From Candidatus Pacearchaeota archaeon (GTDB lineage Archaea; Nanobdellota; Nanobdellia; Pacearchaeales; JAPDKA01), in assembly GCA_038840695.1 (NCBI GenBank), contig JAWBVE010000005.1, positions 586 through 64,585 on the forward strand: a stretch of DNA of 64,000 nucleotides. Reading direction: 5' to 3'. Both the position numbers and the translations under genes were made by a program. Of the stretch, positions 10,030 to 26,325 are shown in pieces. Under the pieces are notes generated by a model. That model did no database searches. It was not told where the DNA came from and saw nothing but the letters and a program-made list of their open reading frames with translations. Every line of letters begins with the position of its first letter. The first letter of the stretch is position 1.

Positions 10030-10502
10030 TTAGGCCATAAAAAAAGAATTAGTTTTGTTGCATTAACATTGCCACCATCAACATAAGATATAAGCAGAGA
10101 GCTAACATAGATATCTTTTTTTTCTGGTAGTATAGGTAAGCAAGTGTTTTCGCTTGCAGTTAAACAAAAATTGAACTCATATCTTGGGGCTAATTTAGTG
10201 AGCATGGCAGCTATCGAACTATTGAGCTCATTGATATTGTTATATTGCACATAGCTTCTGAGTGTGGCATTCTTTTCAATTTCATCAAGAATTATTGTTG
10301 CAATCTCTTTAACATGCTCTTTTCTGCTTAGTTGCTTTGTTTGTTGTGAGACAAAATAAACTAGGCCAAGCAAAATTATGAGCAAGCCTATTATGGCTTC
10401 AATTATTCTTAAGGCCGATTTCCTTGATTTTTTCAATTTTTTTATTGATTTTTTCATTTTCACTTTCATTTTTTTCTTTTTTCTTCTCAAGCCATTTACC
10501 AA
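10026..10502 (-). CDS. Pilin-like protein (short basic N-terminus, hydrophobic helix, Glu near +5)
   Basis: 158-aa ORF. A K-rich leader is followed by SA|LRIIEAIIGLLIILLGLVYFV. This layout of leader, small residue, then a hydrophobic helix with Glu at about +5 resembles bacterial T4P/TadE-type prepilins. It is the last structural gene of the filament operon. Confidence 0.45.
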   Translation of the reverse strand: MVNGLRRKKKKMKVKMKKSIKKLKKSRKSALRIIEAIIGLLIILLGLVYFVSQQTKQLSRKEHVKEIATIILDEIEKNATLRSYVQYNNINELNSSIAAMLTKLAPRYEFNFCLTASENTCLPILPEKKDIYVSSLLISYVDGGNVNATKLILFLWPK

Positions 10503-11182
10503 ACATAAAATCTTACTTTCACTGTTTCAATTTTATTAGCAATTAAGGCCTTGTAGGCTTTTTCTCTTGCAAAAACATTCAAGCTAGGCACACTTTTTCC
10601 GATCGAGGCTTGTTGGCCATCATAAAGAGTTATATTGAAATCAAGTTTTAGGCCTGGCAAAAGCTTGTCCCTTAGCCAACCATAAGTTTCTTGCTGTGCT
10701 TGCTGCAAAGCAGTCATGTTAAGAAGCCTTTCCTCTCTTGCAGGAGAGAAATAAACCTTAGCCTCATTTGAACTGCTGCAGCCCGAGCCATCAAGGCTAG
10801 AGCTAATGCCATTCAATAAATAAAATATCTGCTCATTGCTATTGAGCACTATTTTATTACTTGTTACATCAAAAGCCATGGCCTCAAAGCTACTATTAAG
10901 AAACATAAAGTCTGTTAAGCCTGGTCTTGTAAAATTGATGCATCCTGTTTTATTGACAACTACAGTAATGAAAGAAACATTCATTGTAAAGTCTTTTTCA
11001 AAACGCTCCTCCATTAAATCAAGAGCCGTTCTTAGTTCTGGCCTAAAAAAAGGAATAAAGAAGTAGCCTATCAAAGCAATTCCTAATAAAAAAACAGAAA
11101 AAGCAATTATAATTTCGACATAACTTATTCCTTTTATGCCTTTTCCTGTACTTTCACTACTTTCACCCCTTTTTTCTTGCAT
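10496..11182 (-). CDS. Pilin-like protein (class III-type signal, Glu at +5)
   Basis: 228-aa ORF. N-terminus ...GKGIKG|ISYVEIIIAFSVFLLGIALIGYFF has Gly at -1, Glu at +5 and a ~20-residue hydrophobic helix, followed by a soluble domain. Confidence 0.5.
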   Translation of the reverse strand: MQEKRGESSESTGKGIKGISYVEIIIAFSVFLLGIALIGYFFIPFFRPELRTALDLMEERFEKDFTMNVSFITVVVNKTGCINFTRPGLTDFMFLNSSFEAMAFDVTSNKIVLNSNEQIFYLLNGISSSLDGSGCSSSNEAKVYFSPAREERLLNMTALQQAQQETYGWLRDKLLPGLKLDFNITLYDGQQASIGKSVPSLNVFAREKAYKALIANKIETVKVRFYVW

Positions 11183-11251
11183 TTTTATTTTTCCTTTTTC
11201 TTTACTTTTTCTTTCCTTCTTCTCTTTATCTCTATTTACTTTTCTTATTTT

Positions 11252-12115
11252 TTATTTTATAAAAAGTTTTGCACCTTCAAGAATTAAGAAGGAGAGAGCC
11301 ATAAGTATAAAAGAATGTTTTAAGCCAGCAAAAAGTTTGCCCTCTGAGAGTTTACTTATAACAAAGCCAGTAAAAAAGCCCTGCATAAGAATCAATGCAA
11401 GCACTAAATTATTAATAAATTCTACATCGGTTGTAGCTGGTGTTAAGCCAACTCCAAAAGCTCCAAAACCGCCAACCTGAGTGCCTGCCGCTTCCAAGCC
11501 ACTAAGCGTTGAAAGAACTGCAGGTATAAATTTGAGCTGAACAAAAACCATAATGATCAAAAAAATAAAAAAAATAATATAGCCCTGCATTACCATTCCA
11601 TGAATTGCAGCAGTTCTTTTCTTTTTTATTTCAGATATTTCCTGAACATTTACTAAAGCTGATTCGAGGATACTCTCTATTTTGCCTCCAGCGCGCTCTG
11701 CTTGGCTTATTAACTCTATGGTTCTTGCAATAATATTGCTTCTCGAATCTCTTGCAAAAGTCTCGAGAGCTTTTTTTAAAGGAATTCCTAGCATAATTTG
11801 GTTTGCAAGCTTTTTTACATGCACATCAAGAGCTTTATAATTTCTCTTTGATATGTTTAGTATGGATTTTGAGATGGGAATTCCTGTCTTGACTGATTCA
11901 TTTAAGTCTGAGACAAATTCGATGAACATTTCCTCTTTTTCTTTTTCTTTCTTTGCTCCATAAACTAAATCTATAAAAAAAGGTATGAGGCTGAGTAATA
12001 TGGCTAGTCCAAAAATAAAGAAGAATGTTTTTGTTTTTAAAAAAAAGATAAAGTCAAGGATAATTATGCCTAGCCCGACTAGTATTGCAATGTAATGTGG
12101 CTTTCTTAGTCTCAT
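11252..12115 (-). CDS. Type IV filament platform protein, single T2SS-F domain (TadB/TadC/FlaJ-like), copy 2
   Basis: 287-aa polytopic membrane ORF. N-terminal TM helices are followed by a cytoplasmic helical domain (FVSDLNESVKTGIPISKSIL...LGIPLKKALETFARDS...IELISQAERAGGKIESILE) and then C-terminal TM helices. This is the GspF/TadB/TadC repeat pattern. Confidence 0.65.
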   Translation of the reverse strand: MRLRKPHYIAILVGLGIIILDFIFFLKTKTFFFIFGLAILLSLIPFFIDLVYGAKKEKEKEEMFIEFVSDLNESVKTGIPISKSILNISKRNYKALDVHVKKLANQIMLGIPLKKALETFARDSRSNIIARTIELISQAERAGGKIESILESALVNVQEISEIKKKRTAAIHGMVMQGYIIFFIFLIIMVFVQLKFIPAVLSTLSGLEAAGTQVGGFGAFGVGLTPATTDVEFINNLVLALILMQGFFTGFVISKLSEGKLFAGLKHSFILMALSFLILEGAKLFIK

Positions 12116-12188
12116 TTTGCTCGCTTTTGCCCCTTTTCTTGCTTTTTCTTTTTTATTTTTCTTTTACTTTTCCTTTACTTTTATTTCT

Positions 12189-13169
12189 TTAAGTAGGCGG
12201 TGTTACGATTTGTAAATATATTATGAATATTATGTTGAGGAGTGCAAGAATGGCTATGCCTATTATTGAGATAATGGGCACTGTCAAGCCGGCAATTGTG
12301 CCTCCAAAAGCATTAATAAGCACTAAGACAAGCATAAAAATGAGGGGAGCTGCAATAAGCAAGCCAGTGTAGATATCAGAGTAAATGCCAGCTGACTCAG
12401 TAAATTTTTCTCGTGTTATTTTATAATCAGTTAAAGCAATTTTTGCTTGCTCCTCAAGAAATGCTTTGAGATCACCTCCAGTTACAATGTTTGTTGCTAG
12501 CCCATTAAGTATATCTTGTAGTTTTTTGTTGGCTATAATTTTGTTTGTAGCTTTTATTGCACTTACAACGTCCATGCCAAGTACATTTATTTGGTTTGTA
12601 ACCTTTTTAAGTTGCCTTGCAATGGCACTATATTCTTTTGACTCAGCAATTAAGCCGAGCACCTTTATTGGTTGTACGCCGGCAGAGGCTATAGATGCCA
12701 TATAAAGAGTTGCAAATGGCAACTCAGCTTCAATTTTTCTCTCCTCAGACTTTATTAAAATACTTGGATAAACAAAGAGAAATATAAGGATGGCAAAACT
12801 AAAAACAAAAGCTATAGCAACATTTCTTAAAACAATTGGCCAAGGTGAGCCTATTGATAAAATGCTAGCAAGAATGAGTGAAAAGATGAGTGCAAGAGAA
12901 AAAATAAAAAAAATTAAGCTTAAGTAACTTGAGGCAATCAAAGGTATGCTAGCCTTTCTTAACTTTACTTTATAACTTTCCAGCCAGGGCTTGCTTAGAA
13001 GCTTTAAAGATAGCTTTCTAAAAAGAAAATTTGCTATTTTAACAAAAGAGCTTACTTTTTCTTCTTTTATTTTTTCTTTTTCTTCCTCTTCACCAGGCTT
13101 TATTTTCTTTATTCTCTTTAACGATTCCTCCCTTATTTTTAGTTCCTCAAGCAACTCTTTTTTAACCAT
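12189..13169 (-). CDS. Type IV filament platform protein, single T2SS-F domain (TadB/TadC/FlaJ-like), copy 1
   Basis: 326-aa ORF. A charged N-terminus is followed by TM helices, a cytoplasmic helical domain (SIASAGVQPIKVLGLIAESKEYSAIARQLKKVTNQINVLGMDVVSAIKAT...TGGDLKAFLEEQAKIAL) and C-terminal TM helices. It lies directly downstream of the ATPase. Confidence 0.65.
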   Translation of the reverse strand: MVKKELLEELKIREESLKRIKKIKPGEEEEKEKIKEEKVSSFVKIANFLFRKLSLKLLSKPWLESYKVKLRKASIPLIASSYLSLIFFIFSLALIFSLILASILSIGSPWPIVLRNVAIAFVFSFAILIFLFVYPSILIKSEERKIEAELPFATLYMASIASAGVQPIKVLGLIAESKEYSAIARQLKKVTNQINVLGMDVVSAIKATNKIIANKKLQDILNGLATNIVTGGDLKAFLEEQAKIALTDYKITREKFTESAGIYSDIYTGLLIAAPLIFMLVLVLINAFGGTIAGLTVPIISIIGIAILALLNIIFIIYLQIVTPPT

Positions 13170-13213
13170 TTTTAACTCTTAACCATTCAACCATTTTAGC
13201 TTTTTAACCTTAG

Positions 13214-14779
13214 TTATTTCAAAAATTCGGCTATCACAGCCTTTGGATTTTTGTAATATCTGTTTATTATTTTTTGCACTTCATAAAAATCAAATATCTT
13301 TCTTTTGTAAAGCTCATACAAAAGCCTTGTTCTTACTTTAAATTCATTCTCTATCTCTTCACTACTCAAACCGAATCTATCCTTGATTTTTTCAAAAACT
13401 TTTATTTTTGTTTTATAATAAAATTTGTCCTCTGCAGGATCCCAGAAAAATGGAGTATTCGTTGTGGCTGTGCCATCTTCAGCTACTTCAATTATTTCAG
13501 TAATTTTCCCAAGCCTCCTCGTTTCTTGACCACCTACTAAAGCATGCTGCATTATTGCTATTGCATCAAGTACATTTAACAAAGTAGGGCTTAGGCTTAT
13601 TGGTGGTGTTTGAAGCCTCTTTATGACTGCCTCAACACTATCAGCGTGAATTGTGCTTAAGCTTGGATGCCCTGATGCCATGCCCTGAAAAAGCACAAAA
13701 GCCTCTTTTCCTCTAACCTCTCCAACGATAACATAATCTGGCCTTTGTCTAAAGCTCTCTTTGAGTAAAGTAAAAAGATCTATCTCCTCAGCTCCTCCCA
13801 AGCCAGTCCTAGCTACACTTGGAAGCCAGTTCTCTCTCGGTATATTTAACTCTCTCGTATCCTCTATGCTCACTACCCTCGCTTCTGGCGGGATGAAAAA
13901 AGTTATTGCATTTAACAAGCTTGTTTTACCACTTCCTGTACCCCCAGCAATAAGCAAATTCATTTTATATTGAATTAAAAGCCAAAAATATGCCATCATT
14001 TCAGGACTTACTGTTTTAAAGCTGATAAGCTGTATCGGGCTCCAAGGAATTTTTGTAAATTTTCTTATTGTGAATGTTGGCCCTTTTGTTGTTATCTCTG
14101 TTGTGTATGTTGCATTCACACGCGAGCCATCAGGTAAAGTGCCATCTAGCAAGGGATTAGCATAGCTAATATATTTTCCACATCGCTGAGCCAATTTTTC
14201 AACAAGACTTGCAAGATATTCCATGTCATAGAAAATAAGTGTAGTGCGCAAATTTCTATAGATACGATGCACTACATAGACTGAGCTATTAATACCATTA
14301 CACTCTATATCCTCTATAAAATAATCTCTTAACAGTGGCTCTATTTCATTCAAGCCAATAAAATCTCTATAGATATAGTAAAAGAGCTTGCTGTAGCTTT
14401 TTTCTGGAATTGTTAGAGAAAGTTCATCAGCAATAAGCTTGATTGCTTTATCAATATAGTCAAGAATTTCCTCTTGTGTTTTTTCGCTTAGATAGCTTAT
14501 ATTTATAACTTCCTGAAGAGCATCTCTTATTAGCTTTAGTATCTTTCTTTCCTGCTCATTTAAGAGTGGCTCTTCAATTTCATAAACAAGCTCTGAGGCC
14601 TTCGCGTCCCAGTAAATATGGGCATAGGCATAAGGACTAATTAGTGGATATCTTACATTTACCTTTGTTTTGTCCTCAATTTTTTTAATGGGAGGTATTG
14701 GCGGATTTAGATTGATTGAAGGATATGATTTTGTCATTTTGCTTATTTGACAATTTCGATTTACAATTTTGCCTTTCAC
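13214..14779 (-). CDS. Type IV filament/secretion ATPase (FlaI/PilB/TadA, GspE superfamily)
   Basis: 521-aa ORF. Walker A LIAGGTGSGKTSLLNA, Asp box VSIEDTRELN, Walker B-region RQRPDYVIVGEVRGKEA and His box GHPSLSTIHA. The N-terminal domain length is typical of archaeal FlaI-like ATPases. Confidence 0.88.
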   Translation of the reverse strand: MKGKIVNRNCQISKMTKSYPSINLNPPIPPIKKIEDKTKVNVRYPLISPYAYAHIYWDAKASELVYEIEEPLLNEQERKILKLIRDALQEVINISYLSEKTQEEILDYIDKAIKLIADELSLTIPEKSYSKLFYYIYRDFIGLNEIEPLLRDYFIEDIECNGINSSVYVVHRIYRNLRTTLIFYDMEYLASLVEKLAQRCGKYISYANPLLDGTLPDGSRVNATYTTEITTKGPTFTIRKFTKIPWSPIQLISFKTVSPEMMAYFWLLIQYKMNLLIAGGTGSGKTSLLNAITFFIPPEARVVSIEDTRELNIPRENWLPSVARTGLGGAEEIDLFTLLKESFRQRPDYVIVGEVRGKEAFVLFQGMASGHPSLSTIHADSVEAVIKRLQTPPISLSPTLLNVLDAIAIMQHALVGGQETRRLGKITEIIEVAEDGTATTNTPFFWDPAEDKFYYKTKIKVFEKIKDRFGLSSEEIENEFKVRTRLLYELYKRKIFDFYEVQKIINRYYKNPKAVIAEFLK

Positions 14780-14834
14780 AATTTTGCCTCTTTTAATTAA
14801 TAAAAAATCACGCTTTTTTAAGCCTTTTTAAATG

Positions 14835-15431
14835 CTATGCAGAAATGAGAATTGTATTGTTAACACTGCCGAGAGGGGTTCCAAAATTTTTTATGCTTAT
14901 TTTATATGGCGTAGGAGCTTGAGTTAGTATAAGCTCATTGCCCTCACCATCAATAGCTGTTGTTATGTTTATTGGCTCAGTATAATTTAAAAAAAGCTTT
15001 GTTATAAATCGGCCGGCTTCTTGTGTTGTAATAAGATTGACTGTTCCGACGCTGATTAGTTGATTTAGCTCAGAAAATTTGAAATTAGTGCCAAGTTGCC
15101 ATTCAACTTTATCCTCTTGAGGCTTTATCCGAAGCTCGCCCTTGGCTATCTTTAGCTCGAAAAGCCTGGCAGAGCCTGGCATTTCATTAACATCAAGAAT
15201 AAGTCCATTTAAGCTATTAAGAGCATTTATCATATAATTGATTGTATATCTATCTTTTGCTTCTTCTATTTTTGGCCTTGTTGCAATGAGAAGAGCTGAG
15301 ATCACAGCAAGCCCTATCAAAATATAGATAACAGTTGATATCCAGATATCAGCTCTTTCTGCTTTCTCTTTTATTTTTTCTATTTTTTCTTTTACTTTTT
15401 TTTCTTTAACTTTTCCCGTTTTTCTTAACAT
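14835..15431 (-). CDS. Pilin-like or pilus accessory protein with class III-like N-terminus
   Basis: 198-aa ORF. A K/E-rich leader is followed by ERA|DIWISTVIYILIGLAVISALLIA and then a soluble beta-rich-looking domain. Confidence 0.5.
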   Translation of the reverse strand: MLRKTGKVKEKKVKEKIEKIKEKAERADIWISTVIYILIGLAVISALLIATRPKIEEAKDRYTINYMINALNSLNGLILDVNEMPGSARLFELKIAKGELRIKPQEDKVEWQLGTNFKFSELNQLISVGTVNLITTQEAGRFITKLFLNYTEPINITTAIDGEGNELILTQAPTPYKISIKNFGTPLGSVNNTILISA

Positions 15432-15631
15432 CTTTTTATTTTTTTATTTTGCCTTCCCTTCCTTCTTTCTCCCTCCTTCTTTTTTCTCCTTTTTTCCTAT
15501 TTTATCCTCTCTCCCTTCTAACTCCTACTTTCTCACTTCTCTTCTTCTCCTCACTTCTCTCCACTTCCGCTTCTCCTTTTCTTCCCACACTTCCTTACTG
15601 CTCCCTTTTACTCATCCCCTTTTACCCCCTT
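15432..15631 (-). repeat. 200-nt polypurine (sense, minus strand) / polypyrimidine (plus strand) spacer between two pilin-like genes
   Basis: The plus strand reads almost only C/T (ctttttatttttttattttgccttcccttccttctttctccctcc...). It fills the whole gap between the stop of 15632..16123 and the start of 14835..15431. Confidence 0.9.
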
Positions 15632-16123
15632 CTACTCACAAGTTCTAAGCACTACACTAGACTTCAAATTTTCGCATGTTATATCCTGAGTTCCGGCCCT
15701 AATTACAGGCACTACTTCAGCTCTCTCTACTCTCATTGGAGCACTAAAGTAGTATGTATTTGACTCGCCAGGACGTGGAATTGCCGGAGTCGTTGTTTCG
15801 TTGATCTCATATACTCTAGTTTTTCCTTCCCCACTCAGCATTACTTTTATTTTACTTAATGTGAACTGAGTAAGTGGTCTTTGTATTTGTATGAGTGTTA
15901 GGTTATCTGGGCTACTTGCATTAAAACAAGTATAGCCCTCTTCCAATATAGTAAGCTGCCTATCAAAGCTGCACTCCTTTGATGTTCCTATTCCTTTCTG
16001 TATAAGCGGCAAAATTGCCCCCCATATTATGCCTATCGCAGCTATCGTTATTAAAACAAGCAGTACAGTAGCCACTAAAGCCGATACACCTCTTTTTCCA
16101 CTTTTTTCAATTATTTTTTTCAT
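15632..16123 (-). CDS. Archaeal type IV pilin-like protein (class III signal peptide, DUF361-type N-terminus)
   Basis: 163-aa ORF. MKKIIEKSGKRG|VSALVATVLLVLITIAAIGIIWGAIL is a close match to the archaeal pilin/archaellin N-terminal consensus (basic-G/A | xSxV(I/V)ATVLL(I/V)xIT(I/V)). Confidence 0.8.
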   Translation of the reverse strand: MKKIIEKSGKRGVSALVATVLLVLITIAAIGIIWGAILPLIQKGIGTSKECSFDRQLTILEEGYTCFNASSPDNLTLIQIQRPLTQFTLSKIKVMLSGEGKTRVYEINETTTPAIPRPGESNTYYFSAPMRVERAEVVPVIRAGTQDITCENLKSSVVLRTCE

Positions 16124-16156
16124 TTTTATTTTGTTTTTTACTTATGCTTATTTTTG

Positions 16157-16675
16157 CTATAAGTATTTTATTTGAACTTTATCTTCACACGCATAAAGGT
16201 AAGCATTCTTGCTTTTAACTCCCTCGCCGAGCAATAGTGGAATTATTTCAAGTTTTTGTATGCTCTGAGGGCTTTGGCTTTCCATAATAATTCCAGTAGC
16301 ACCTGGCTCAAGAGCGCTCTCATCAGGATTTATGAAGTAATCCTTAATTTCTGAACGGCCTTCGTAAATATACTTAACTCTGATCTTATAAATTCTGACA
16401 TTGCCAGTGTTTGTTACAGTAAAATTTATTCCAGTTCCTTGGCCGACATCAACATCAAAGCCAACATTTGTGCATGCCTGCTCAATTGGGCTTCCGAACT
16501 TTGTGATTTGTTCAGCCACAAAGCTCCTGCTCCATATAAAAACAATTGCAAAAAGTGCAAGACTAATGCCAATTAAGCCGACTGTTGCAACAACAGGCTC
16601 AATAGCTTTTTTTGCCTTGCCTTTCTTACCTTTTCTTCCCTCTTTTTCTTGCATCTTAAAATAATTTTTAAGCAT
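16157..16675 (-). CDS. Archaeal type IV pilin-like protein (class III signal peptide, DUF361-type N-terminus)
   Basis: 172-aa ORF. ...GKAKKA|IEPVVATVGLIGISLALFAIVFIW has the same archaeal pilin N-terminal pattern. The true start may be the internal Met at 16654 (MQEKEG...). Confidence 0.7.
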   Translation of the reverse strand: MLKNYFKMQEKEGRKGKKGKAKKAIEPVVATVGLIGISLALFAIVFIWSRSFVAEQITKFGSPIEQACTNVGFDVDVGQGTGINFTVTNTGNVRIYKIRVKYIYEGRSEIKDYFINPDESALEPGATGIIMESQSPQSIQKLEIIPLLLGEGVKSKNAYLYACEDKVQIKYL

Positions 16676-16816: not shown

Positions 16817-18664
16817 TTGGCAAAGATGAAACACATGAAAACGTTGCAAACACCACATACAAAAGCAACAAAAGCACAAAAAGCGCAAATAACGCTTTTT
16901 GTTATAATTGCGCTTGTAGTTATTGTGGCTGGAATAGCAGGCTATTTTTTAATAAAGCCAAGAGGCCCGAAGCTGCCACCTGATATTAAAGAGATTGAAA
17001 ACAGCTATGTTAGCTGTCTTGCTGATTTGACAAAACAAGCCATTGAGCTTGCAGAGCAGCGAGGAGGCTATATATATGAGCTCGAGCAAACTCAAGAGGG
17101 CCTTTATTTTAGCAATGCTCTCGATTTTATGGGTGAGAGAATAGCTTATTGGTTTTATTATGACTCGAGTGGCAAGCCAATTGAACAAGTTCCGAGCTTA
17201 AGCTTTATTGAAAGCCAGATAGCAAGATATGTAATGGAACATATTGAGCTATGTGATGATGTGTTAAGAGCAAGCGGGATAAGCTTTGAAAAAAAGCCTG
17301 TGAGGATTGAGATAGCAATAGGCAAAAAAGTTGAGGGAAAGGCACTGATTGATTTAAAGCTAAGCAAGCAAAATGCAACCTATCTGATTAGAGAGCATAG
17401 CTTTACTCTAGACTCTGAGCTAAAACAACTTTATGAAACAGCGCGAGCAATTTATGATTATGAAAGCTCAAGTCGTTTTCTTGAGAACTACACTCTTGAT
17501 GTTTTGACACTTTATGCCCCAACAACGGGCTTTGAGCTTCAATGCATGCCTTTAACTTTTGAAAAAGAAAAAATAAAGAAGGACATAATTGATGGCCTAA
17601 CTGTAAATCTTGAAAGGATAAAGTTTGCCGGTGATTACTTCAGTCTTGCGAGCGAGGAGAATAAATATTATGTCAATGATGTAAAAATTCCAAATGGCAT
17701 ATACGTTAATATTCTTGGCCCACTGAAGCCAATAAAGATAGAGATTTATGGCGATGAAAGAAATGGCATTTTTAAGTTTGATCCAATAGGTAAACAGCCA
17801 GGCTTAGCTATGTTAAATTCAATTGGCTTTTGCTATGTACCATATCATTTTGTCTATGATATAAAATATCCATTATTGATTGAAGTTAGTGGCAAAAAAG
17901 AGCTATTTAAGTTTCCAATCACTGTTGTGCTAGAGAGAAATGGTGTCAAAGAAATGCTCACTGAAGGCGAGAGCGTATCAGCAAGAATATGCAATAGCGC
18001 AATCACAGAAGCAATAATAAATGTATATGACGAGAGCGGCAAGCCGCTAGATGCTGAGTTGTATTTTAAGTGCTTAGATGCTGTCTGCTATCTTGGCAAG
18101 GCCGAGCAGGGCTATTTAGAAGCTAAAGTGCCAGAATGTGTTAATGGCTTTCTTATTGCGAGCTTAGATGGCTATGCACAAGAAAGCTTACAGCTTGATA
18201 GCACGCACAACTTTATTGGCACTCTTTTCCTAAGCCCTCTTTATTCAGTTAAGCTAGAGCTAAATTTAAGAAGCGATGAAAGCGCATTAATACTTTTCGA
18301 GGGCAAGACAACAGCATCAATAAATTATCCTGAACAAAAAGAAGTCAAGCTTGCTGAGGGCAGCTATGAGGTTAGTGTCTATGTCTTTAAACAAAAAAGT
18401 CTGAGCATAGTAAATAAGAGCGAGCTTTGCTATGATGTGCCGGTCTTTTTTGGCATGACAAGAAAGCAATGCGTTGAGCTAGAAGGGATGAGCTTTGATA
18501 ATGTAGTGGTTGGTGGAGGCAAGACAAGCATTGAGCTTAGCGAGGAAATGCTGGCTAGAGGAAAACTCAGAATTGATTTTGAACGCTTTAGTGAGCCGAG
18601 AGAAATTTCTGATCTAGAAACCAATTACGAGCTTGTCGATGCCAGTGAGCTAAAAATAAGTTAG
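16817..18664 (+). CDS. Hypothetical 615-aa N-terminally anchored extracellular protein (possible pilin-like N-terminus)
   Basis: The track start is a TTG at 16817, and an ATG at 16826 follows the SD-like gagggtgag. N-terminus ...KATKAQKAQ ITLFVIIALVVIVAGIAGYFLI is a basic leader plus one hydrophobic helix. The rest has no domain I recognise. It is divergent from the pilin operon and upstream of the giant gene. Confidence 0.6.
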   Translation: MAKMKHMKTLQTPHTKATKAQKAQITLFVIIALVVIVAGIAGYFLIKPRGPKLPPDIKEIENSYVSCLADLTKQAIELAEQRGGYIYELEQTQEGLYFSNALDFMGERIAYWFYYDSSGKPIEQVPSLSFIESQIARYVMEHIELCDDVLRASGISFEKKPVRIEIAIGKKVEGKALIDLKLSKQNATYLIREHSFTLDSELKQLYETARAIYDYESSSRFLENYTLDVLTLYAPTTGFELQCMPLTFEKEKIKKDIIDGLTVNLERIKFAGDYFSLASEENKYYVNDVKIPNGIYVNILGPLKPIKIEIYGDERNGIFKFDPIGKQPGLAMLNSIGFCYVPYHFVYDIKYPLLIEVSGKKELFKFPITVVLERNGVKEMLTEGESVSARICNSAITEAIINVYDESGKPLDAELYFKCLDAVCYLGKAEQGYLEAKVPECVNGFLIASLDGYAQESLQLDSTHNFIGTLFLSPLYSVKLELNLRSDESALILFEGKTTASINYPEQKEVKLAEGSYEVSVYVFKQKSLSIVNKSELCYDVPVFFGMTRKQCVELEGMSFDNVVVGGGKTSIELSEEMLARGKLRIDFERFSEPREISDLETNYELVDASELKIS

Positions 18665-18717: not shown

Positions 18718-21700
18718 ATGAAAGACAAAAAAGAAGCAAAACAGTTAATTGCAATTGCAATCAGCCTAATTTCAGTGCTCCTGCTAATCGATCTTGCGGG
18801 AGCGCAGAGCTACTATACTTTCAATCCAAATCAGATTTATGGAGAAGAGTACAACACGCTTTTTCCAGGCGGCATCGGAGCTTATTGTAATACAACGCAA
18901 AATTTTCTAGTTTATGTTGATCCGCTCGAGGGCTGCCAGCCAGCTGTTGTTAGATCTGATCTGCTGGAAGAGCAGCCTGTGAATGTCTTCTGCAAGCTAA
19001 AGACAATAAATCTCAATCCTTTGCTTCAAAGTATATACATAAAGAATGTTAATATAAAAGTGGAAAATAAGAGTGACATTGTTAGAGGTGCAACTTTTCA
19101 TTTGCCTTATATCGGCGAGAGGCCACTTGTTAATGCCTTTAAGCCAGGCTTTAAATCTGGAATTGCTTATTGGGACAATTTAGGCTATGCAGTCATTATG
19201 CTAAAGCCAGAGCCAATCGAGAGAAAAATTCCTGAGCGAGCAGACGTTAATGCATCAATCGAGATAAGATATACAGCAAGCTATCTTTTTGGTATAGAGA
19301 AGAATACTTTTGATTTGCCAAAACTTAGTGATGCCGAATTTAGAGCAAGATACAATCAATTTAGTTTTTTTAATGGCAAGGGCTTTATAAGGGCTGTTGA
19401 TATAAGGCCGGAAAGTGCTGATGTGCTCGTCTATAAAGACTCCCCAAATGATCCAACGCCAATTCGTGTTACATTGCCTAAAAGAAAGCCGGTGCCCATT
19501 GGCTTCTGGGGCTTTTTCTGTGACAATCAAAATTTCGAACTTGAGCTAATTTCTTCTGAGCTTCCTGTAACAAAGGCAAGGCTAGTAATAAATAATGAAG
19601 AGTTCTTGCTTGGTAGGCTTGAGAAGGAGGCTGGATGTGAAGTGTTGAGTATAGATGAAGGCATTTTTGGAGGAGGTAAAGTTAGGCTTGAGTGTGGTGG
19701 CGAGCTCGTCGAGCTTGAGCTATTGCCTCTTTCAGTGCATCTAGTTAAGGATAATGTTGAGTATGTTTATGGCCTTGGCGAAAGTTTCATAATTGAGGAA
19801 CAAAAAAAACAAGAGCAAGAAACAGAGCAAGCGCAGCAAAAAAGGCAAGAAGCGCCAGAATCGCAAGAAAAGAAGGCAAGGATTGCTTATGTTATTTATG
19901 CTGATAAACGCAAGAAAGAAGCCTTGTTTGCTATTTCTGATGTACCTTTGCAAAATGAAATTATAGAAGAAATAGTAAAGATTGCAATTGATAAGAGCGG
20001 CGTTAAAAATAATGTTACGGCTGAAATAGCTTCAAGAAAGATAAAAGTTGACATAGTGCAGGCAAGCGAGAAAGGATATAAAGTTATTGATGTTGCAGGA
20101 GTTATTAATGTGCCTCTTGACCAAGAAACAGAAAGTTATTATCAAGAGGCAAGGAATAAGTATGAAGAGCTATTTTTTAAATATAAAGATGAAAAGGATG
20201 AAAGTGGTGAGTATATAGGGGCAAGGGCACTCTACTTACTTGCAGAGCTTGCAGGAAAAATTGGCAAAAATGCTGACAAAGCTCAAATCCTAAAAAAGCT
20301 TGTTGATAGCTATAGTGGCACTGATTCAGGACTTGTAAGTAAGGCTATGGCAGAGTTAAAATCAGTTTCCTATTATGATGGCGAAAAAGCAACAGCAAGC
20401 ATTTCAACTCCTGAAGGAATTTTTGTTGTTCAGCTTAAAGCCATCGAAGCGCCGAGAAGTGATGCAATATATGCAAGGCTAAAAGTGAATGGCATAGAAG
20501 GCAAGTATAGCTTAAAAAGTGATTTGGGTGAAGGTTGGATAATAAGTCAGATAGAGGAAAGAGGAATAAAGATAAAGAAATTTAATTATAGCTTAGGCTC
20601 TGTAACCAATGAAATTTATTTAGCTGTTGGCGAGAAAGAAAGACTCAGCGAGAAGCTTGAGATTGAACTTCTCGAGACAAAGCTTGAGAGAGTGGCTAGA
20701 GTTGTTGTTAGGCCTCCTGCTCTTGAGTTTGTTGCTGAATCCAATTTTTCTATACACATAGGAATAGAAAAGCGTGCAATTCAAATAGGCACTGAGAAAA
20801 CAAAAGAGTATATAAAAAAGCTTAATAGAACAATTGCAACATTGCAATCTATTAATGATAAGTTAACAAGCTTAATTAAAGGATGGAAAAAGGCATGCTA
20901 CATAGGTGGAACTGCACTATTCCTAAAAAATTTCTTGCAGGGGCTTGGTGGCAAGGCAACTGCGAGGCGGCTTGCGATGAGGGGCTTTGATGGCAAGGCT
21001 GGTTGGACTGAGTGGTGCAGGCAGCAAGTTAGCAATAAAGCTTATAGAAGCATAAGTCAATGTTTAAGAGAGAATTCAAAAGAAATAGAGAAGGATGTTA
21101 ACAAAATAAGCTCTAACCTCAAAACCATAAATAGCCAAATAAATGCTGCAAACAATGCTTGCAAAGATAAGAAGGGGCAAGAGGCAAATGAATGTTTCTT
21201 TAAGCAACTTAAATTTAATAAAATAGAGTGTGGAGGAGCACAAGCGCAAGAAAAAGAAAAATGCGAGAAAGCAAATAACTTTATTGCAAACATATCAAAG
21301 CTTGCAAATTCAGGGCTATATTATAAAGAGAATGCAAAAGATCTTTTGCTTCAACTTAACTTAATTGAATGTGTTGACTGCTCTGATACAATAAAGCAAC
21401 AAGCGCGAGAGAAGCTTTATGCTGATGCAAACTTTTATTTAAAACTTGCAGAACCAACAGCCTCTCTTGCTCAAGAGCATCTTATCTTTGCTGGTTCTCT
21501 CGGCAAATCAATAGAGCTTGTGCCTCAAACAGTGCAATGGACAACACTAATTGGGAAGCAGGAGGATAGTCTGCGAGTGAATAATGGAGGAGGAACAATC
21601 CAGAAGGGCACAGAATACTTTATAGCTGACATAGCTGGCTTGGGCTTGCATTATTTTGTCATAGGCCGTGAGCCAGGAAATATTCCTGTCATAAAAGAGG

Positions 21701-24700
21701 TTTATAAGTATGAAATTAAGAAGGGGGAAGCTACACTGTCAACGCCAGAAGCTTGCAATCAAATAGCTAAAGAACTTGGAAAGAATGATTGCTTGAATTA
21801 TCTTAGAGAAAAGCTAAGGATTGTTGAGAGCGAGTGTGGCATGGCAATAAAGCAGCAATTTTTGAGAGCAGAATTCTATGAGAGTGGGCAATGGAGAGGA
21901 AAGCTAGCTTATATGCCTCTCAACAGGCTCGAGCCAGGCCTTTATGTCTATATTCCTGACGAGTTCAAAGTTAAGAGCTATCTCGAGAACGGCATGCTCA
22001 ATGTCTTTTGGATATGCGACGCAGGAGCAAACGGCATTCCTGACCTAGCTCTTTATAAGCAGCCAGGAGATGATAGCTGCTTTAGAATAGACATAGAGGC
22101 AGGATGGCAGGCTTTAGGGAATAGCATAATATGCCAGGAAATGCCACAGCTAAGGCTCGGCAACATCATTCAACAAGTTCAGAGCTGTGTTGCAGATGCA
22201 AACAGACAAAAGCGCGAGGGAAGGCCTGTAATTAGCACGAGTTGCAATGGTGCTATTAAAGTGGAGAAAGCAGTAAATATACCTTCTGTGCAATGTGAGG
22301 ACTTTATGTCAAGCAAGGACTGCTGGCTTCTCTTTAATTTGTGTGATCCTGTGCTTTGCCCTCCTTCAAGATGTGATCTCGGCGGGAGATATCCAACAGA
22401 GAATGTTGTGGCTAGCGGCATCATAGGAAGCTTAGTTCTATGCTTGCCTAATTTCGAAGGAGGCAAAGGAACTCTTGTGCCATTTTGCTTAACAGGCATC
22501 AATGCTGGCTTGGATGGCTTGATAAGTATACTAAAGGCTAGTCAGGATTGTTTAAATGAAAGCTTGGCAAGTGGCAGAACAGTAGGCATATGTGATCAAA
22601 TTAGGAGCATATATCTTTGTGAGTTTATGTGGCGTGAGCTCATGCCTTTCATAAAAATTGGAATTCCATCAATTTTAGAGCGCATAGAAAGGAAGGGAGG
22701 AGGAGAATATGCGCTTTTTGCAGATACATGGAGAAGAACAACTGATAGCTTCAATTATTTTGTTCAGTATTATGGCACTACTGCAATTGAGGCATTTAAA
22801 ATAAGGAGCACTGCTGAGGTTGGCTCAATGCTATGTAAACGCTTTATAGGCTTAAGATATCCTAGCGTAGCAAGCTTGCTTGAGGAACTTGCTAAGCCAG
22901 AAAGTCCTTATCAGTTTTTTGCCACAGTCACAGAGCTTCCATATACAGAAGTAACAGCACCACCACAAAGCCACTACAAAGTTTACTATCATATCTATGC
23001 TGGCAAGGATCAAGGAGTTTATTATAGCGTTTATTTAAAAAGCCCAACAGTATACCCTGGCTATTATAGCCCTGAACAATATATAGTTGATACTGGATTT
23101 ATTCCAAGAGGCGATCAAAAGGATGTTAGCAAGGACTTTACGGCTCAGGCAGGCTATAAAGAAATTTGTGTTAATATAAATGCTAAAGAATATTGTGGCT
23201 TTAATGTTGTGACACAGAGCTTTGCTGCAAATTGGTTACAGGATAAATACTTAGAAAGTCAGCTAATGAATGTTACAAAAGCCAGTGAATGCACTGCAGG
23301 TAGACCAAGTTTGATACCAACTGCAAGCATATTAAATTTGCAAGCTGGCATAACGCAAGCATTGGAGCCAGCTATATATAAACAGGGAATAGTTAGAATG
23401 TGCTCAAGCAAGAATCCTGGCATAGGCGTTGAAGAAGCCTCTTGGGCACCTGTTGGCTATTGTGATAGTCCAGAAATAAAATGCTGGGTTTATATGCCAA
23501 GCATAAGCCAAGCCATAAAGGATGTTGGCTTTGTAAATCAGACAATAAAAAGTCTTGATGAGGCAAGGCGGCTTGAGCAGGCAAAAGCGATATTTGGCAA
23601 GGAAACAGAATTTATGAAAGCAGAGCAAATCGCAAGCTTTGCCGAAGCTCTTGACAAAAAAATTGGAGAGAATGATAAGATAATAAGCGAAATTGAGGAC
23701 GCGATCAGTGCAAGCAATGAGAAGAGAGTAGGAGAGCTAACCAAAGCCTTAAGCGAAAACAAAAAGCTAGACGAGCTCAAAGCCTTTATTAATGAAAAAG
23801 AAAGGCAGCTCATCTTAATTCTAGACCCCGAGTCACTGAAAAAAATAGAAATCAAGCTTGCTCAGCTCTTTGGCCAGCTCACCTTGCTAAAGTACTATGA
23901 AAAAAATGCGGCTAAGCTGGTTGAAAAGAGGATAGAAGAGGAGAGGGAGAGGGAGGGGAAGAAGGAGGGGGGAGAGAAAAAGGAGGAAGAGGAGATAGAA
24001 GAAGGAGAAAAGGGTAAAGTAAAACTAAAACCACTAGAAGAAAAGCCCCCTACCCCTAAAGTTGAAAAGAAGGAGGTAGTGAAATTAGGCCTACCTACGG
24101 TGAGAGAGAAGATTAAAAGTTGTAGTATTAGGAAAAAAGGAGCAAGAATAGAATTTACTTTCAACGAATCAATCGAGATAAAAGCGCTCATAGGAGGCAA
24201 TGTTACTAAAATAGCTACTCTTGGTAAAGATGAAGTAGAAGTTAAGAGTGAAGTAATAACAAAAATGGAAGCTGAAAGCAAGGTTATTTTAATTGAATAC
24301 GGCAAACTAGACAAAGCCAACGATAGCATAAAAGGAGAGCAGAGCATAAAAGAGGGAACAGTAATTGGAAAAAGCAAGCAGCTTTATTTAACATTGATGG
24401 AAGGAAAAGTAGAATGGAGTGAGCTACTTACAGAGGAGACATGGAATTACATAGAAAGAGGATGTCAGGCATTCGAAGCGCTTCTTTTCGTTGGAAAACC
24501 TGGTAGCCCTTATTCACGTCAAGGCCAGACAATTGAATATAATGATACCGAAACTGAAATTTGTCTGGTTTTTTTTGATCCAAAAACACAAATTTATTAT
24601 AATAATAAATCCATCTCTATAGAACCGCATTTATGGAGTGCCGCAAAACCAATTTCTACAGAAGTTTTACCTTATAGCATAACCATAACTTGGGAAGTGA

Positions 24701-25650
24701 TTTTACCAGTATTAAGGAAACCAACTCCAATTTTGTTTAAAAACTTTTATAAAGCAAGAAATATGAGTAAGGGACCAGATAGCCATTGGATAAAAATTAA
24801 CAATACTTATTATGAAATTATTGAATATAAGCATGAAGAGATGAATAAGAATAATAATCAATGGTGCATAAAACCTATAAATGAGAGTAGTGGGACATTC
24901 TGGTATAGGGCTCTTGGAACAATTATTATTAATGATAAAGAATACCATTTTAATACAGGCCCATATTTCGCAGATGAAAAGAATGATTGGAAAGGCCTAA
25001 TTTCTTCAGTTTATTTGAAGAATTTTTTAAGCAAGAGCGACTATTACAAAATTGAACCAGAACAAAATTGTGGAGGGGATATTTGCGCAGGCTTGTTAAC
25101 CATAGATCCGTCTAAGGCAATGCGAGTAAGCAGGAAATCTAATTTTTCAAATGAGCATCCAGAATTGTGCAAAAATAACAAAATTGGCTGTAAGCTCATA
25201 GAAACTGCAGAAAGCTTTTACAATGTGCCATATGTTTTCAGACATCCTCGAACAATATGCCCAGTGAATAGTGGGCACTATATTGCAAGTGATTTTATTG
25301 TAAGTGATTTAGGCTTAGCCGCAGATTGTGGAACTTTAGTAAAATCTGTTTTAGAGATGAATAATATTAAAAAAGTTACTGAGTTTGTTAGGGATACATG
25401 GAAAAATTTGCAATCAATGTCAATTGCGAATGGAATTTATGTAGGAGACATATTTGAAATACCACATGGAGCAGCATTTGTTTATAATGATAGTGATAAT
25501 GATCCAGGCACAATAAAACCTAACGATAAGCTTTTAGCTATGAGCAAAGAGTATGGTACTGTAGCAACCAAAGAAATAGAAGACATTGAATTTATTAAAA
25601 ATGAGACTACTGTAACCATATCGACTGCCAGAAATATTAAAAAACAATAA
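18718..25650 (+). CDS. Giant secreted, modular Cys-rich surface protein (2310 aa) with a C-terminal papain-like (NlpC/P60-like) module
   Basis: Single uninterrupted 6.9-kb ORF. Signal peptide MKDKKEAKQLIAIAISLISVLLLIDLAGA|QS. E/Q-rich linker (~19795-19880). Cys-rich core ~20890-23490 (e.g. CWLLFNLCDPVLCPPSRC, ECVDC). Coiled-coil/charged stretch ~23550-24110. Degenerate LytM-like segment ~24120-24410. AT-rich C-terminal region with PYVF...ADCGTLV...GDIFEIPHGAAFVY (Cys2204/His2250). Confidence 0.85.
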   Translation: MKDKKEAKQLIAIAISLISVLLLIDLAGAQSYYTFNPNQIYGEEYNTLFPGGIGAYCNTTQNFLVYVDPLEGCQPAVVRSDLLEEQPVNVFCKLKTINLNPLLQSIYIKNVNIKVENKSDIVRGATFHLPYIGERPLVNAFKPGFKSGIAYWDNLGYAVIMLKPEPIERKIPERADVNASIEIRYTASYLFGIEKNTFDLPKLSDAEFRARYNQFSFFNGKGFIRAVDIRPESADVLVYKDSPNDPTPIRVTLPKRKPVPIGFWGFFCDNQNFELELISSELPVTKARLVINNEEFLLGRLEKEAGCEVLSIDEGIFGGGKVRLECGGELVELELLPLSVHLVKDNVEYVYGLGESFIIEEQKKQEQETEQAQQKRQEAPESQEKKARIAYVIYADKRKKEALFAISDVPLQNEIIEEIVKIAIDKSGVKNNVTAEIASRKIKVDIVQASEKGYKVIDVAGVINVPLDQETESYYQEARNKYEELFFKYKDEKDESGEYIGARALYLLAELAGKIGKNADKAQILKKLVDSYSGTDSGLVSKAMAELKSVSYYDGEKATASISTPEGIFVVQLKAIEAPRSDAIYARLKVNGIEGKYSLKSDLGEGWIISQIEERGIKIKKFNYSLGSVTNEIYLAVGEKERLSEKLEIELLETKLERVARVVVRPPALEFVAESNFSIHIGIEKRAIQIGTEKTKEYIKKLNRTIATLQSINDKLTSLIKGWKKACYIGGTALFLKNFLQGLGGKATARRLAMRGFDGKAGWTEWCRQQVSNKAYRSISQCLRENSKEIEKDVNKISSNLKTINSQINAANNACKDKKGQEANECFFKQLKFNKIECGGAQAQEKEKCEKANNFIANISKLANSGLYYKENAKDLLLQLNLIECVDCSDTIKQQAREKLYADANFYLKLAEPTASLAQEHLIFAGSLGKSIELVPQTVQWTTLIGKQEDSLRVNNGGGTIQKGTEYFIADIAGLGLHYFVIGREPGNIPVIKEVYKYEIKKGEATLSTPEACNQIAKELGKNDCLNYLREKLRIVESECGMAIKQQFLRAEFYESGQWRGKLAYMPLNRLEPGLYVYIPDEFKVKSYLENGMLNVFWICDAGANGIPDLALYKQPGDDSCFRIDIEAGWQALGNSIICQEMPQLRLGNIIQQVQSCVADANRQKREGRPVISTSCNGAIKVEKAVNIPSVQCEDFMSSKDCWLLFNLCDPVLCPPSRCDLGGRYPTENVVASGIIGSLVLCLPNFEGGKGTLVPFCLTGINAGLDGLISILKASQDCLNESLASGRTVGICDQIRSIYLCEFMWRELMPFIKIGIPSILERIERKGGGEYALFADTWRRTTDSFNYFVQYYGTTAIEAFKIRSTAEVGSMLCKRFIGLRYPSVASLLEELAKPESPYQFFATVTELPYTEVTAPPQSHYKVYYHIYAGKDQGVYYSVYLKSPTVYPGYYSPEQYIVDTGFIPRGDQKDVSKDFTAQAGYKEICVNINAKEYCGFNVVTQSFAANWLQDKYLESQLMNVTKASECTAGRPSLIPTASILNLQAGITQALEPAIYKQGIVRMCSSKNPGIGVEEASWAPVGYCDSPEIKCWVYMPSISQAIKDVGFVNQTIKSLDEARRLEQAKAIFGKETEFMKAEQIASFAEALDKKIGENDKIISEIEDAISASNEKRVGELTKALSENKKLDELKAFINEKERQLILILDPESLKKIEIKLAQLFGQLTLLKYYEKNAAKLVEKRIEEEREREGKKEGGEKKEEEEIEEGEKGKVKLKPLEEKPPTPKVEKKEVVKLGLPTVREKIKSCSIRKKGARIEFTFNESIEIKALIGGNVTKIATLGKDEVEVKSEVITKMEAESKVILIEYGKLDKANDSIKGEQSIKEGTVIGKSKQLYLTLMEGKVEWSELLTEETWNYIERGCQAFEALLFVGKPGSPYSRQGQTIEYNDTETEICLVFFDPKTQIYYNNKSISIEPHLWSAAKPISTEVLPYSITITWEVILPVLRKPTPILFKNFYKARNMSKGPDSHWIKINNTYYEIIEYKHEEMNKNNNQWCIKPINESSGTFWYRALGTIIINDKEYHFNTGPYFADEKNDWKGLISSVYLKNFLSKSDYYKIEPEQNCGGDICAGLLTIDPSKAMRVSRKSNFSNEHPELCKNNKIGCKLIETAESFYNVPYVFRHPRTICPVNSGHYIASDFIVSDLGLAADCGTLVKSVLEMNNIKKVTEFVRDTWKNLQSMSIANGIYVGDIFEIPHGAAFVYNDSDNDPGTIKPNDKLLAMSKEYGTVATKEIEDIEFIKNETTVTISTARNIKKQ

Positions 25651-25677: not shown

Positions 25678-26325
25678 TTAAAAAATGTCGTAGGATTTCT
25701 TATATTCTTCTATGTCTTTTTCCTCAGGCTTAGGTTTTTCTCGCTGTTTAGGTTTGGAAGGCACGTAAAATTTAGCTTCTGGAGTTGGACACGGTGGGCA
25801 TGATGGGCATTGTGGGCATGATGGGCATTGCGGGCAATTTACTATGCAAGGTAGTTGCTGAGCTGGTTGAGTTGGTGCTTGATAACAAGGTTGAGCTGGA
25901 GTTTGCGGCTGAACTGATTGGGCAGGTTTTTGCTTTTCTGGCTGAACAGGTTGAACAGTAACATTTTCATATCTCTTTTCTTCTCTTCCTTCAGGAGTTT
26001 CTACAGCTACTTTTGCATACTCTGATATAACTCTCGCCGCAGTTGCATCACTTGGAAAAAAGCTCGTTGTTGCTGGTTGTGGATATTGCTCGCATGGAAT
26101 TTCTTTTATGTCTTTTACTCCTGTAAGAGGATTTATAACAGTTTTGTAACAGACATCAGGAACTTTAAATTTTTTTTTGATATCAACTCCATAAGAATTT
26201 TCTATTACTATATTTTCTCCTTCATACATCACAATAGGTTTTTTCACAGCGCATCCCATGCCTATTCCTCCGAGTATTCCAGCGAAGAGCAAGGCTTCAA
26301 GTGTTTTTTTAATTTTGCCTGCCAT
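25678..26325 (-). CDS. Putative lipoprotein/secreted protein with P/Q-rich region and CPxCPS repeat
   Basis: 215-aa ORF. N-terminus MAGKIKKTLEALLFAGILGGIGMGC is a signal peptide ending in a lipobox-like Cys. The C-terminal half is P/Q-rich and contains NCPQCPSCPQCPSCPPCP. Confidence 0.6.
   Translation of the reverse strand: MAGKIKKTLEALLFAGILGGIGMGCAVKKPIVMYEGENIVIENSYGVDIKKKFKVPDVCYKTVINPLTGVKDIKEIPCEQYPQPATTSFFPSDATAARVISEYAKVAVETPEGREEKRYENVTVQPVQPEKQKPAQSVQPQTPAQPCYQAPTQPAQQLPCIVNCPQCPSCPQCPSCPPCPTPEAKFYVPSKPKQREKPKPEEKDIEEYKKSYDIF
25786..25836 (-). repeat. In-frame 18-nt tandem repeat encoding CPQCPS x2 plus CPPCP
   Basis: The plus strand tggacacggtgggcatgatgggcattgtgggcatgatgggcattgcgggca translates codon by codon, on the minus strand, to CPQCPSCPQCPSCPPCP. 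Confidence 0.95.

Follow-up and report, generated by a model that had tools for sequence, protein, structure and literature searches.

A conserved cysteine-rich giant protein of Pacearchaeota and its obligate partner: a candidate two-component surface apparatus with exchangeable C-terminal modules

The subject of this study is a giant protein of 2310 amino acids (aa) encoded by an open reading frame (ORF) in a 64,000-nucleotide stretch of contig JAWBVE010000005.1 from a Candidatus Pacearchaeota archaeon; this whole stretch is referred to here as the window. It is representative of a very large protein family that earlier work noticed without characterising it, and its gene lies directly downstream of a conserved partner gene. 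Our assessment is evenly balanced between accepting and rejecting the proposal that the two products constitute a two-component, disulfide-stabilised surface apparatus of Pacearchaeota/Woesearchaeota-type DPANN archaea, which displays an exchangeable payload towards the envelope of an attached cell. In this proposal, the giant protein would be exported by Sec, after which about 14 disulfides would hold its folded body as an elongated stalk. The partner would then retain the stalk on the cell, either as a membrane anchor or by being built into a type IV pilus-like fibre via its N-terminal helix, and the stalk would bring its C-terminal payload up against the envelope of whichever cell the episymbiont attaches to, with binding or local opening of that envelope as the result. 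The payload of the window protein would be a lineage-specific module in which no peptidoglycan hydrolase is recognised. A preliminary description of this DNA had given the position and length of the giant ORF correctly, and all eight strings that it quoted were found in the protein; it missed both the exchangeable C-terminal payload on a conserved body and the obligate partner gene.

Screening of 5.8 billion protein sequences yielded more than 200 homologs of the giant protein (202 with E ≤ 1e-3), which share 30 to 60% identity with it over up to 75% of its length; the closest, P0001, is 98% identical. When coverage by 120 homologs was plotted along the window protein, a body spanning aa ~50 to 1600 emerged, with conserved blocks at aa 50 to 340, ~450 to 800, and 1050 to 1600 that were covered by 113 to 120 of the 120, while the tail beyond aa ~1650 was variable by the same measure. 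This ~1600-aa body is shared, at 750 bits, with P0017, a relative that carries an SLT domain. The giant protein contains 50 cysteines (2.2% of its residues), and their frequency rises to 4.5% within aa 1100 to 1589, whereas the value for the window's remaining long ORFs is 0.89%, which agrees with the many closely spaced cysteines previously noted in the core. Conservation of the cysteines among homologs had been named as a check, and 28 of them proved invariant or nearly so across the 120 homologs: 6 in the N-terminal domain, 3 in the middle region, and 19 between aa 1100 and 1589. The cysteines that lie between aa 815 and 1040, in a lineage-specific insertion, are not conserved, being identical in just 3 to 14 of the 120. 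Since the 3 and the 19 add up to an even count, the helix region at aa 690 to 800 and the core may form one disulfide-linked unit that is interrupted by the variable insertion, as the alignment suggests.

Both products of the operon have export signals and even-numbered sets of conserved cysteines (28 in the giant protein and 10 in the partner). An N-terminal hydrophobic h-region was present in 118 of the 120 homologs of the giant protein, and those inspected resembled Sec-type signal peptides. None of the 120 had a C-terminal transmembrane segment or anchor, and only 2 had a strongly hydrophobic internal segment. Because the giants have no anchor of their own, they would need something else to be retained on the cell. 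From the signal peptide, the conserved cysteines, and the peptidoglycan hydrolases of relatives, which act solely outside the cell, we infer, with good support, that the giant protein is exposed at the surface. The earlier suggestion of an extracellular, disulfide-stabilised scaffold therefore holds for surface exposure; the disulfides are predicted from the cysteine pattern, and "scaffold" describes the protein only in part.

Alternatively, the conserved cysteines could be ligands of metals or Fe-S clusters and form no disulfides, the protein then being a redox protein of the cytoplasm or the membrane. The dense, invariant spacing C-x6-C-x4-C-x4-C at aa 1202 to 1219 is the sole feature that speaks for this explanation, which we consider highly improbable given that the signal peptide is of the Sec type and lacks a twin-arginine motif, whereas cofactor-loaded proteins usually need export by the twin-arginine translocation (Tat) route. 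Moreover, no ferredoxin or other metal-cluster family was matched, the conserved cysteines are even in number in both proteins, and homologs bear extracellular cell wall hydrolases.

The domains recognised in relatives were all located C-terminal of the body (four examples are given in Table 1). Among the 120 closest relatives, Pfam identified SLT in 23, M23 in 6, M10 in 4, Amidase_3, glucosaminidase, and YkuD in 2 each, and SleB-type and SGNH domains in 1 each. At least one peptidoglycan-active domain was present in 32 of the 120, about a quarter, sometimes with two in one protein; the bacterial cell wall enzymes concerned are SLT, M23, amidase, glucosaminidase, YkuD, and SleB. Since only 23 of these relatives have SLT, this domain is not universal in the family. 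Tail lengths ranged from 84 to 1362 aa, and a homologous tail (a shared segment of ≥100 aa) was found in only 2 to 13% of pairs with 40 to 70% core identity and in 27% of pairs with 70 to 80%. Judged by these pairwise comparisons, the tails, which in the giant take up the last ~500 to 700 residues, are exchanged far faster than the body. The tail of the window protein (aa ~1920 to 2306) is common only to P0002 to P0005, P0007, and the fragment P0121, and since a homolog search with the C-terminal module added only one new fragment, this module is confined to the closest relatives.

A conserved N-terminal body joined to a quickly exchanged C-terminal module would also be expected of a released bacteriolytic or polymorphic effector, used for competition or "vampiristic" scavenging, in which the body would provide delivery or targeting in the manner of Rhs, CdiA, and LXG toxins. 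The many tails that are peptidoglycan hydrolases, sometimes two per protein, and the lack of a membrane anchor in the giant are consistent with this explanation, and a predatory reading has been proposed (PMC9723730). However, the downstream region held neither an immunity-like gene nor orphan tail cassettes: the ORF downstream of the giant gene in the window is on the opposite strand and present in 1 of 84 related loci, and the genes that follow the giant gene in two related loci (L001 and L003) are unrelated. Pfam and NCBIfam revealed no known pre-toxin or delivery domains, most tails, including that of the window protein, lack a recognisable toxic or lytic domain, and the obligate partner, whose helix is of a membrane or pilin-like kind, points to retention on the cell. 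We therefore regard a released effector as distinctly unlikely.

The partner gene is the second constant element of the two-component proposal. In all 68 related loci for which enough sequence is available, a partner homolog immediately precedes the giant gene in the same orientation. Members of the partner family have a uniform length (~600 to 650 aa) and are always annotated as "hypothetical"; the window partner and that of the distant homolog P0017 share 33% identity. The partner has no Pfam domain, and no domain common to the partner and the giant was found. Its sole hydrophobic segment is N-terminal and reads KA/QITLFVIIALVVIVAGIAGY, also written KAQ/ITLFVIIALVVIVAG, which resembles a prepilin-like (class III) signal or anchor. 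In archaeal class III signal peptides, a pattern of a charged residue and Gly or Ala ahead of a hydrophobic helix forms the prepilin peptidase cleavage site. The motif [KR][GA]Q followed by a hydrophobic helix of ~20 aa was present in 61 of 67 partners, with Gln always at +1, and all 10 cysteines as well as Q24, F28, I30, and A32 were invariant in 120 partner homologs. This invariance within the helix exceeds the needs of a generic signal anchor. The ORF call for the window partner starts at a TTG codon (window positions 16817 to 16834 cover the codons concerned) and gives 615 aa; since an identical database entry, P0248, is 609 aa long, the true start is probably 6 codons downstream.

The same observations bear on an anchoring variant of the two-component proposal, namely that the pair forms a type IV pilus-like tip or minor-pilin assembly in which the partner is a large minor pilin carrying the giant on a retractable filament. 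The [KR][GA]/Q site and helix and the four invariant N-terminal residues of the partner would suit a minor pilin, and the window operon divergently adjoins a complete pilus cluster. Nevertheless, the Pfam models Pilin_N and Class_IIIsignal both miss the partner, pilus genes lie close to the giant gene in only a few related loci, and no prepilin peptidase was found among the scanned ORFs of the window. To our knowledge, no archaeal pilus tip protein of the giant's kind has been described. On balance, mounting on a retractable filament appears to us improbable, and since linkage between the operon and pilus genes was rejected as a conserved feature on the basis of its rarity (4 of 84 loci), the pilus cluster is local context and no conserved part of the system.

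The distribution of the family was assessed with a profile of the core, which matched 1,099 clusters (clustering at 50% identity), of which 954 reached E ≤ 1e-30. Giants or giant fragments, with the core at about aa 1000 to 1800, made up all of the 150 best-ranking clusters, and the core is encoded in at least 542 species-representative genomes. The source names of the homologs found with the whole protein were all Pacearchaeota, Nanoarchaeota, Woesearchaeota, or "archaeon" metagenome-assembled genomes (MAGs). Likewise, nearly all of the 80 record titles listed for the core were Pacearchaeota, Woesearchaeota, Nanoarchaeota, or "archaeon," the exceptions being one "bacterium" (DAITPU010000001.1; locus L076) and one "Candidatus Aenigmarchaeum sp." (DYHK01000005.1; locus L078). 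Both of these loci carry a typical partner and giant operon, and they are probably taxonomically mislabelled MAGs. The core was found on no viral contig. The proteins of the window include TFIIB, thermosome, EF-2, ribosomal L1 and L10, SRP54, and Rad50, as expected of an ordinary archaeal chromosome, and housekeeping genes also surround the giant genes of distant homologs. A viral or mobile origin was rejected on account of this absence from viral contigs and of the housekeeping genes as neighbours.

Such a distribution raises the question of whether the pair is instead the main envelope structure of these archaea, of the surface layer (S-layer) type, with the giant as canopy, the partner as membrane-anchored stalk, as in SlaA/SlaB of the Sulfolobales, and the C-termini as decorations. 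The strict two-gene operon of a large secreted protein and a protein with a single membrane helix is compatible with this explanation, as are the occurrence in at least 542 species genomes amid housekeeping genes and the lack of an enzymatic signature in the body. In contrast, no likeness to any S-layer protein was found in sequence (Pfam, NCBIfam, and PDB) or, for aa 640 to 1640, with Foldseek, and the core is 40 to 45% identical family-wide, whereas S-layer proteins are usually less conserved than this and usually poor in cysteine. We know of no S-layers with swappable cell wall hydrolase tails. In addition, separately annotated S-layer genes have been reported among the most highly expressed genes of Woesearchaeota (PMC11606122). 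Taken together, these points make a main envelope structure an unlikely identity for the pair.

Several observations nevertheless weigh against the proposed payload-presenting apparatus. Of 84 loci, only 4 had pilus genes close to the giant gene, and neither Pilin_N nor Class_IIIsignal matched the partner N-termini even at E ≤ 10. No Pfam domain whatever was detected in 82 of the 120 closest relatives, and profiles found no recognised enzymatic payload in the window protein itself. The body yields no structural hint of any activity, and universal conservation beside housekeeping genes would fit a structural envelope protein equally well. A bolder form of the proposal, which we put forward only tentatively and consider less probable than not by a clear distance, is that the operon is a lineage-defining host-contact machine with new folds, a pilin-like mount, and a payload suited to the chemistry of the host envelope. 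Under these circumstances, peptidoglycan hydrolases would be used for bacterial hosts, and other modules, as in the window protein, for other hosts.

The features of the giant gene and its surroundings are collected in Table 1.

Table 1. Features of the giant gene and its neighbourhood, with domains recognised in four relatives. Nucleotide positions refer to the window; for relatives, positions are residues of the relative.
Feature	Position	Strand	Remarks
Giant ORF	18718..25650	+	2310 aa, from the ORF list; >200 homologs of 1.6 to 3.1 thousand aa
Sec-type signal peptide, aa 1-29, AGA/QS predicted cleavage	18718..18804	+	12-aa Kyte-Doolittle maximum 3.1
Conserved N-terminal domain, aa ~40-345	18835..19752	+	6 invariant Cys: 57, 73, 92, 268, 307, 326
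E/Q-rich linker, aa 360-386	19795..19875	+	Within poorly conserved aa ~350-450
Conserved middle region, aa ~440-800	20035..21117	+	3 invariant Cys: 727, 767, 782
Lineage-specific insertion, aa ~801-1049	21118..21864	+	Helical bundle and beta strands; covered by about half of homologs
Conserved Cys-rich core, aa 1050-1600	21865..23517	+	19 conserved Cys
Helical K/E-rich segment (aa ~1601-1740) and charged/Pro linker (aa ~1741-1800)	23518..24117	+	
Lineage-specific C-terminal module, aa ~1801-2310	24118..25647	+	Candidate papain-like/NlpC-P60-like stretch at aa ~2150-2290
Partner gene	16817..18664	+	615 aa by first start codon; ends 53 nucleotides upstream of giant gene
Type IV pilus-like cluster	10026..16675	-	ATPase, two PilC-like proteins, five small pilin-like ORFs; divergent from operon
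M23 in P0007	aa 1908-2005		
SLT in P0017	aa 2075-2183		
Amidase_3 in P0053	aa 1992-2203		
YkuD in P0095	aa 2146-2293		

The predicted cleavage site of the signal peptide was read off the sequence and lies within the string LIDLAGAQS (aa 23 to 31) cited in the preliminary description; the E/Q-rich string cited there is the linker at aa 360 to 386. The N-terminal domain carries the near-invariant motif P.VVRSDLLEEQ.V.VFC. The middle region consists of a tetratricopeptide repeat (TPR)-like helical stretch (aa 451 to 536), a beta-rich part, and a long helix (aa 692 to 743), and the core consists of a helical Cys-rich domain (~1140 to 1395), a beta-sandwich (~1399 to 1499), and an alpha/beta end. 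The single core previously drawn at nucleotides 20890 to 23490 corresponds to aa 725 to 1591. It is Cys-rich and conserved in part, but it is not one unit, as the insertion at aa ~800 to 1050 splits the conserved stretches. Because two of the five Cys motifs quoted for it, ACKDKKGQEANEC (aa 814 to 826) and ECVDC (aa 884 to 888), fall within this insertion, that core is a composite; the other three are CWLLFNLCDPVLCPPSRC (aa 1202 to 1219), CDQIRSIYLC (aa 1292 to 1301), and CDSPEIKC (aa 1582 to 1589).

Hydrophobic stretches had likewise been ascribed to the core, and the quoted string, VVASGIIGSLVLCLPNF, is indeed present at aa 1230 to 1246. However, aa 1230 to 1272 reach a Kyte-Doolittle value of just 1.51, strong hydrophobicity being confined to the N-terminal segment of the giant, and they were modelled as short helices inside the helical domain, with predicted local distance difference test (pLDDT) scores of 77 to 85. 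For these reasons, the stretches are not membrane spans, and a membrane hairpin at this site was rejected. The segment following the core, which had been called a coiled-coil/K/E segment, is helical and K/E-rich (aa ~1595 to 1740), but its coiled-coil periodicity of 1.7 barely exceeds that of shuffled sequences (95th percentile, 1.51). It leads into a low-complexity linker rich in charged residues and proline (aa ~1740 to 1800).

The first ~1600 residues had been said to belong to no known family, and this was borne out by sequence profiles throughout and by a fold search for aa 640 to 1640. Searches of the giant protein, whole and in pieces, against Pfam, NCBIfam, and PHROG gave no match at threshold anywhere, and phmmer and profile searches of PDB sequences with the N-terminal domain, the core, and the C-terminus gave nothing at threshold; the core thus had no above-threshold profile match to a well-described family, a point that the preliminary description had singled out for checking. 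The AlphaFold2 model covers aa 640 to 1640 and was built from a 45-sequence alignment, with a mean pLDDT of 71 (70 to 90 for most of the core) and a predicted template modelling score (pTM) of 0.61. It comprises a 52-residue helix, and the insertion appears as a helical bundle plus a beta region. Foldseek returned no match with E ≤ 1e-3 for this model against the PDB or the BFVD viral structures; the best matches were local (~110 residues) and paired the beta-sandwich with ApaG and with accessory domains of GH2 and GH3 enzymes.

DUF2225, the domain for which the 98% identical P0001 is named at NCBI ("DUF2225 domain-containing protein"), was rejected: at 19.3 bits it stayed below the cut-off of 21, and its match is limited to the TPR-like stretch (window positions 20068 to 20325). 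Since the match is sub-threshold and spans ~85 aa of a 2310-aa protein, the name is uninformative. The stretch at window positions 22579 to 22713 (aa 1288 to 1332) is among the most conserved of the family, with C1292, D1293, C1301, W1305, and an invariant GGGEY at 1327 to 1331. It was modelled at pLDDT < 50 and may represent a candidate flexible functional loop or interaction site. A weak hhalign match (probability 28%, P 6e-4, 63 columns) was also found between aa ~215 to 285 (window ~19360 to 19572) and aa ~623 to 695 (~20584 to 20802), and this resemblance may mean that a small beta domain was duplicated within the protein long ago.

The C-terminal part of the window protein had been described as enzyme-like modules, which no profile or fold method confirmed for this protein. 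SLT (PF01464) did not match its C-terminal pieces even at E ≤ 10. An M23/LytM domain at aa ~1811 to 1886 was rejected, as it scored 14.4 bits in Pfam against a cut-off of 28.7 (E 0.046), with a PHROG "metallo-endopeptidase" match at E 0.047; hhalign against the family's own M23 domains gave a probability of 0.9%, and the stretch contains no His for the HxxxD and HxH metal ligands. The last ~150 residues carry NlpC/P60-like motifs (NVPYV...DCGTLV...VGDIF). An hhalign comparison of the C-terminus with E. coli MepS/MepH/NlpC was weak (probability 11%, P 0.0027) but had the PYV, DC, and GD motifs in register. C2204 and G2243-D2244 are invariant in the seven sequences of the C-terminal module, whereas the candidate His2250 is present in the window protein and P0002 but replaced by K, L, S, or V in P0003, P0121, P0004, and P0005. 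Pfam gave no NlpC/P60 match at E ≤ 10 for any of the seven members, and the PDB profile search found nothing. Because the AlphaFold model of aa 1790 to 2310 is poor (pLDDT 52, from only seven sequences), the fold search made with it has no meaning. From the motifs, the payload of the window protein is possibly a papain-like/NlpC-P60-like peptidase.

Within the pilus cluster divergent from the operon, Pfam identified a T2SSE-type ATPase (13214 to 14779) and two T2SSF/PilC-like proteins (11252 to 12115 and 12189 to 13169). The N-termini of its five small ORFs have a charged residue, then G, A, or S, and then a hydrophobic helix; one of these ORFs had a sub-threshold Pilin_N match (E 0.054), and a DUF7507 match of 25.8 bits, against a cut-off of 27, was present in one. 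On the P0004 contig (L003, 23790 to 26186), a T2SSE-type ATPase gene ~7.6 kb downstream of the giant is interrupted by an intein, with matches to Intein_splicing and LAGLIDADG. In the window, the 215-aa ORF that follows the giant gene (25678 to 26325, minus strand) has an N-terminus resembling that of a lipoprotein (…GGIGMGC…), a middle part rich in P and Q, and a Cys-Pro repeat, CPQCPSCPQCPSCPPCP, with no match in Pfam. It lies outside the conserved unit, since it is present in only 1 of the 84 related loci.

The giant protein is no orphan, as its family has already been mentioned in the literature (PMC8204110 and PMC9723730), where such proteins are read as extracellular enzymes that bind or degrade cell walls in contact with bacteria. 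Castelle et al. (2021; PMC8204110) proposed for such proteins an extracellular role in attachment to bacterial walls, and the earliest mentions of them are Rinke 2013 and Castelle 2015. Vigneron et al. (2022; PMC9723730) used the label "large lytic murein transglycosylase" and argued that these proteins are a sign of a predatory lifestyle. Both papers annotate the SLT domain only, and the literature searched contained no description of the protein beyond that domain, whether of the Cys-rich body, the Cys pattern, the tail polymorphism, or the partner gene. From its description in PMC8204110, we infer that the giant family is the published fam00969. The two agree in their lineages, in sizes up to ~3,000 aa, and in the proposed extracellular role; the window protein shares the ~1600-aa body of the SLT giants and differs from them in having no SLT/GH23 or other recognised hydrolase.

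These results bear on the hosts and attachment modes of Pacearchaeota and Woesearchaeota, two highly diverse and widespread DPANN groups. The family has so far been read through its occasional SLT domain, as a hint of attack on bacteria. Our analysis places SLT as one of many interchangeable tails on a ~1600-aa Cys-rich body with a constant pilin-like partner, which would recast the family as a general two-component surface apparatus rather than only an enzyme. New relative to the searched literature are the conserved body with its 28 invariant cysteines, its lack of a match to any fold or family, the rapid replacement of tails, and the strict association with a prepilin-like, Cys-rich partner. 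The operon, the 28 and 10 invariant cysteines, and the [KR][GA]/Q site provide concrete targets for structure determination, metaproteomics, and cryo-electron tomography, and the body and partner would add several new folds. If the operon is indeed a host-contact machine, the payload type could serve to predict hosts for hundreds of DPANN species that have not been cultured.

The giant and its partner resemble several known systems in part. Like the polymorphic toxins Rhs, CdiA, LXG, and MafB, the giants combine a long conserved N-terminal region with a fast-exchanged C-terminal module, but they have no homologous domains, downstream immunity gene, or orphan cassettes, and their recognisable payloads are cell wall hydrolases, against which an archaeon requires no immunity protein. 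Phage tail lysins and tape-measure proteins, and the PrgK/TcpG/CwlT hydrolases of Gram-positive conjugation, likewise have a long helical or extended form, carry SLT, M23, NlpC/P60, or amidase domains in various combinations at their ends, and open the bacterial wall locally where contact is made. The giant body, however, is unrelated to these in sequence and, for aa 640 to 1640, in fold, and the family is chromosomal and absent from viral contigs. SlaA/SlaB are also encoded in an operon for a large secreted protein and a smaller single-anchor protein, yet they share no similarity with the pair described here, whose partner has an N-terminal, prepilin-like anchor in place of the C-terminal anchor of SlaB and whose giant is Cys-rich and highly conserved, with variable enzymatic tails in its family. 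Finally, in the tips of bacterial type IV pili and type II secretion systems (PilY1 or PilC with minor pilins; GspK), a class III-type pilin-like protein is co-encoded with a large non-pilin surface protein, just as the window pair, which itself adjoins a pilus cluster, joins a prepilin-like partner to a giant; however, the two systems share no homology, the partner matches no pilin profile, and linkage of the giant loci to pilus genes is not conserved.

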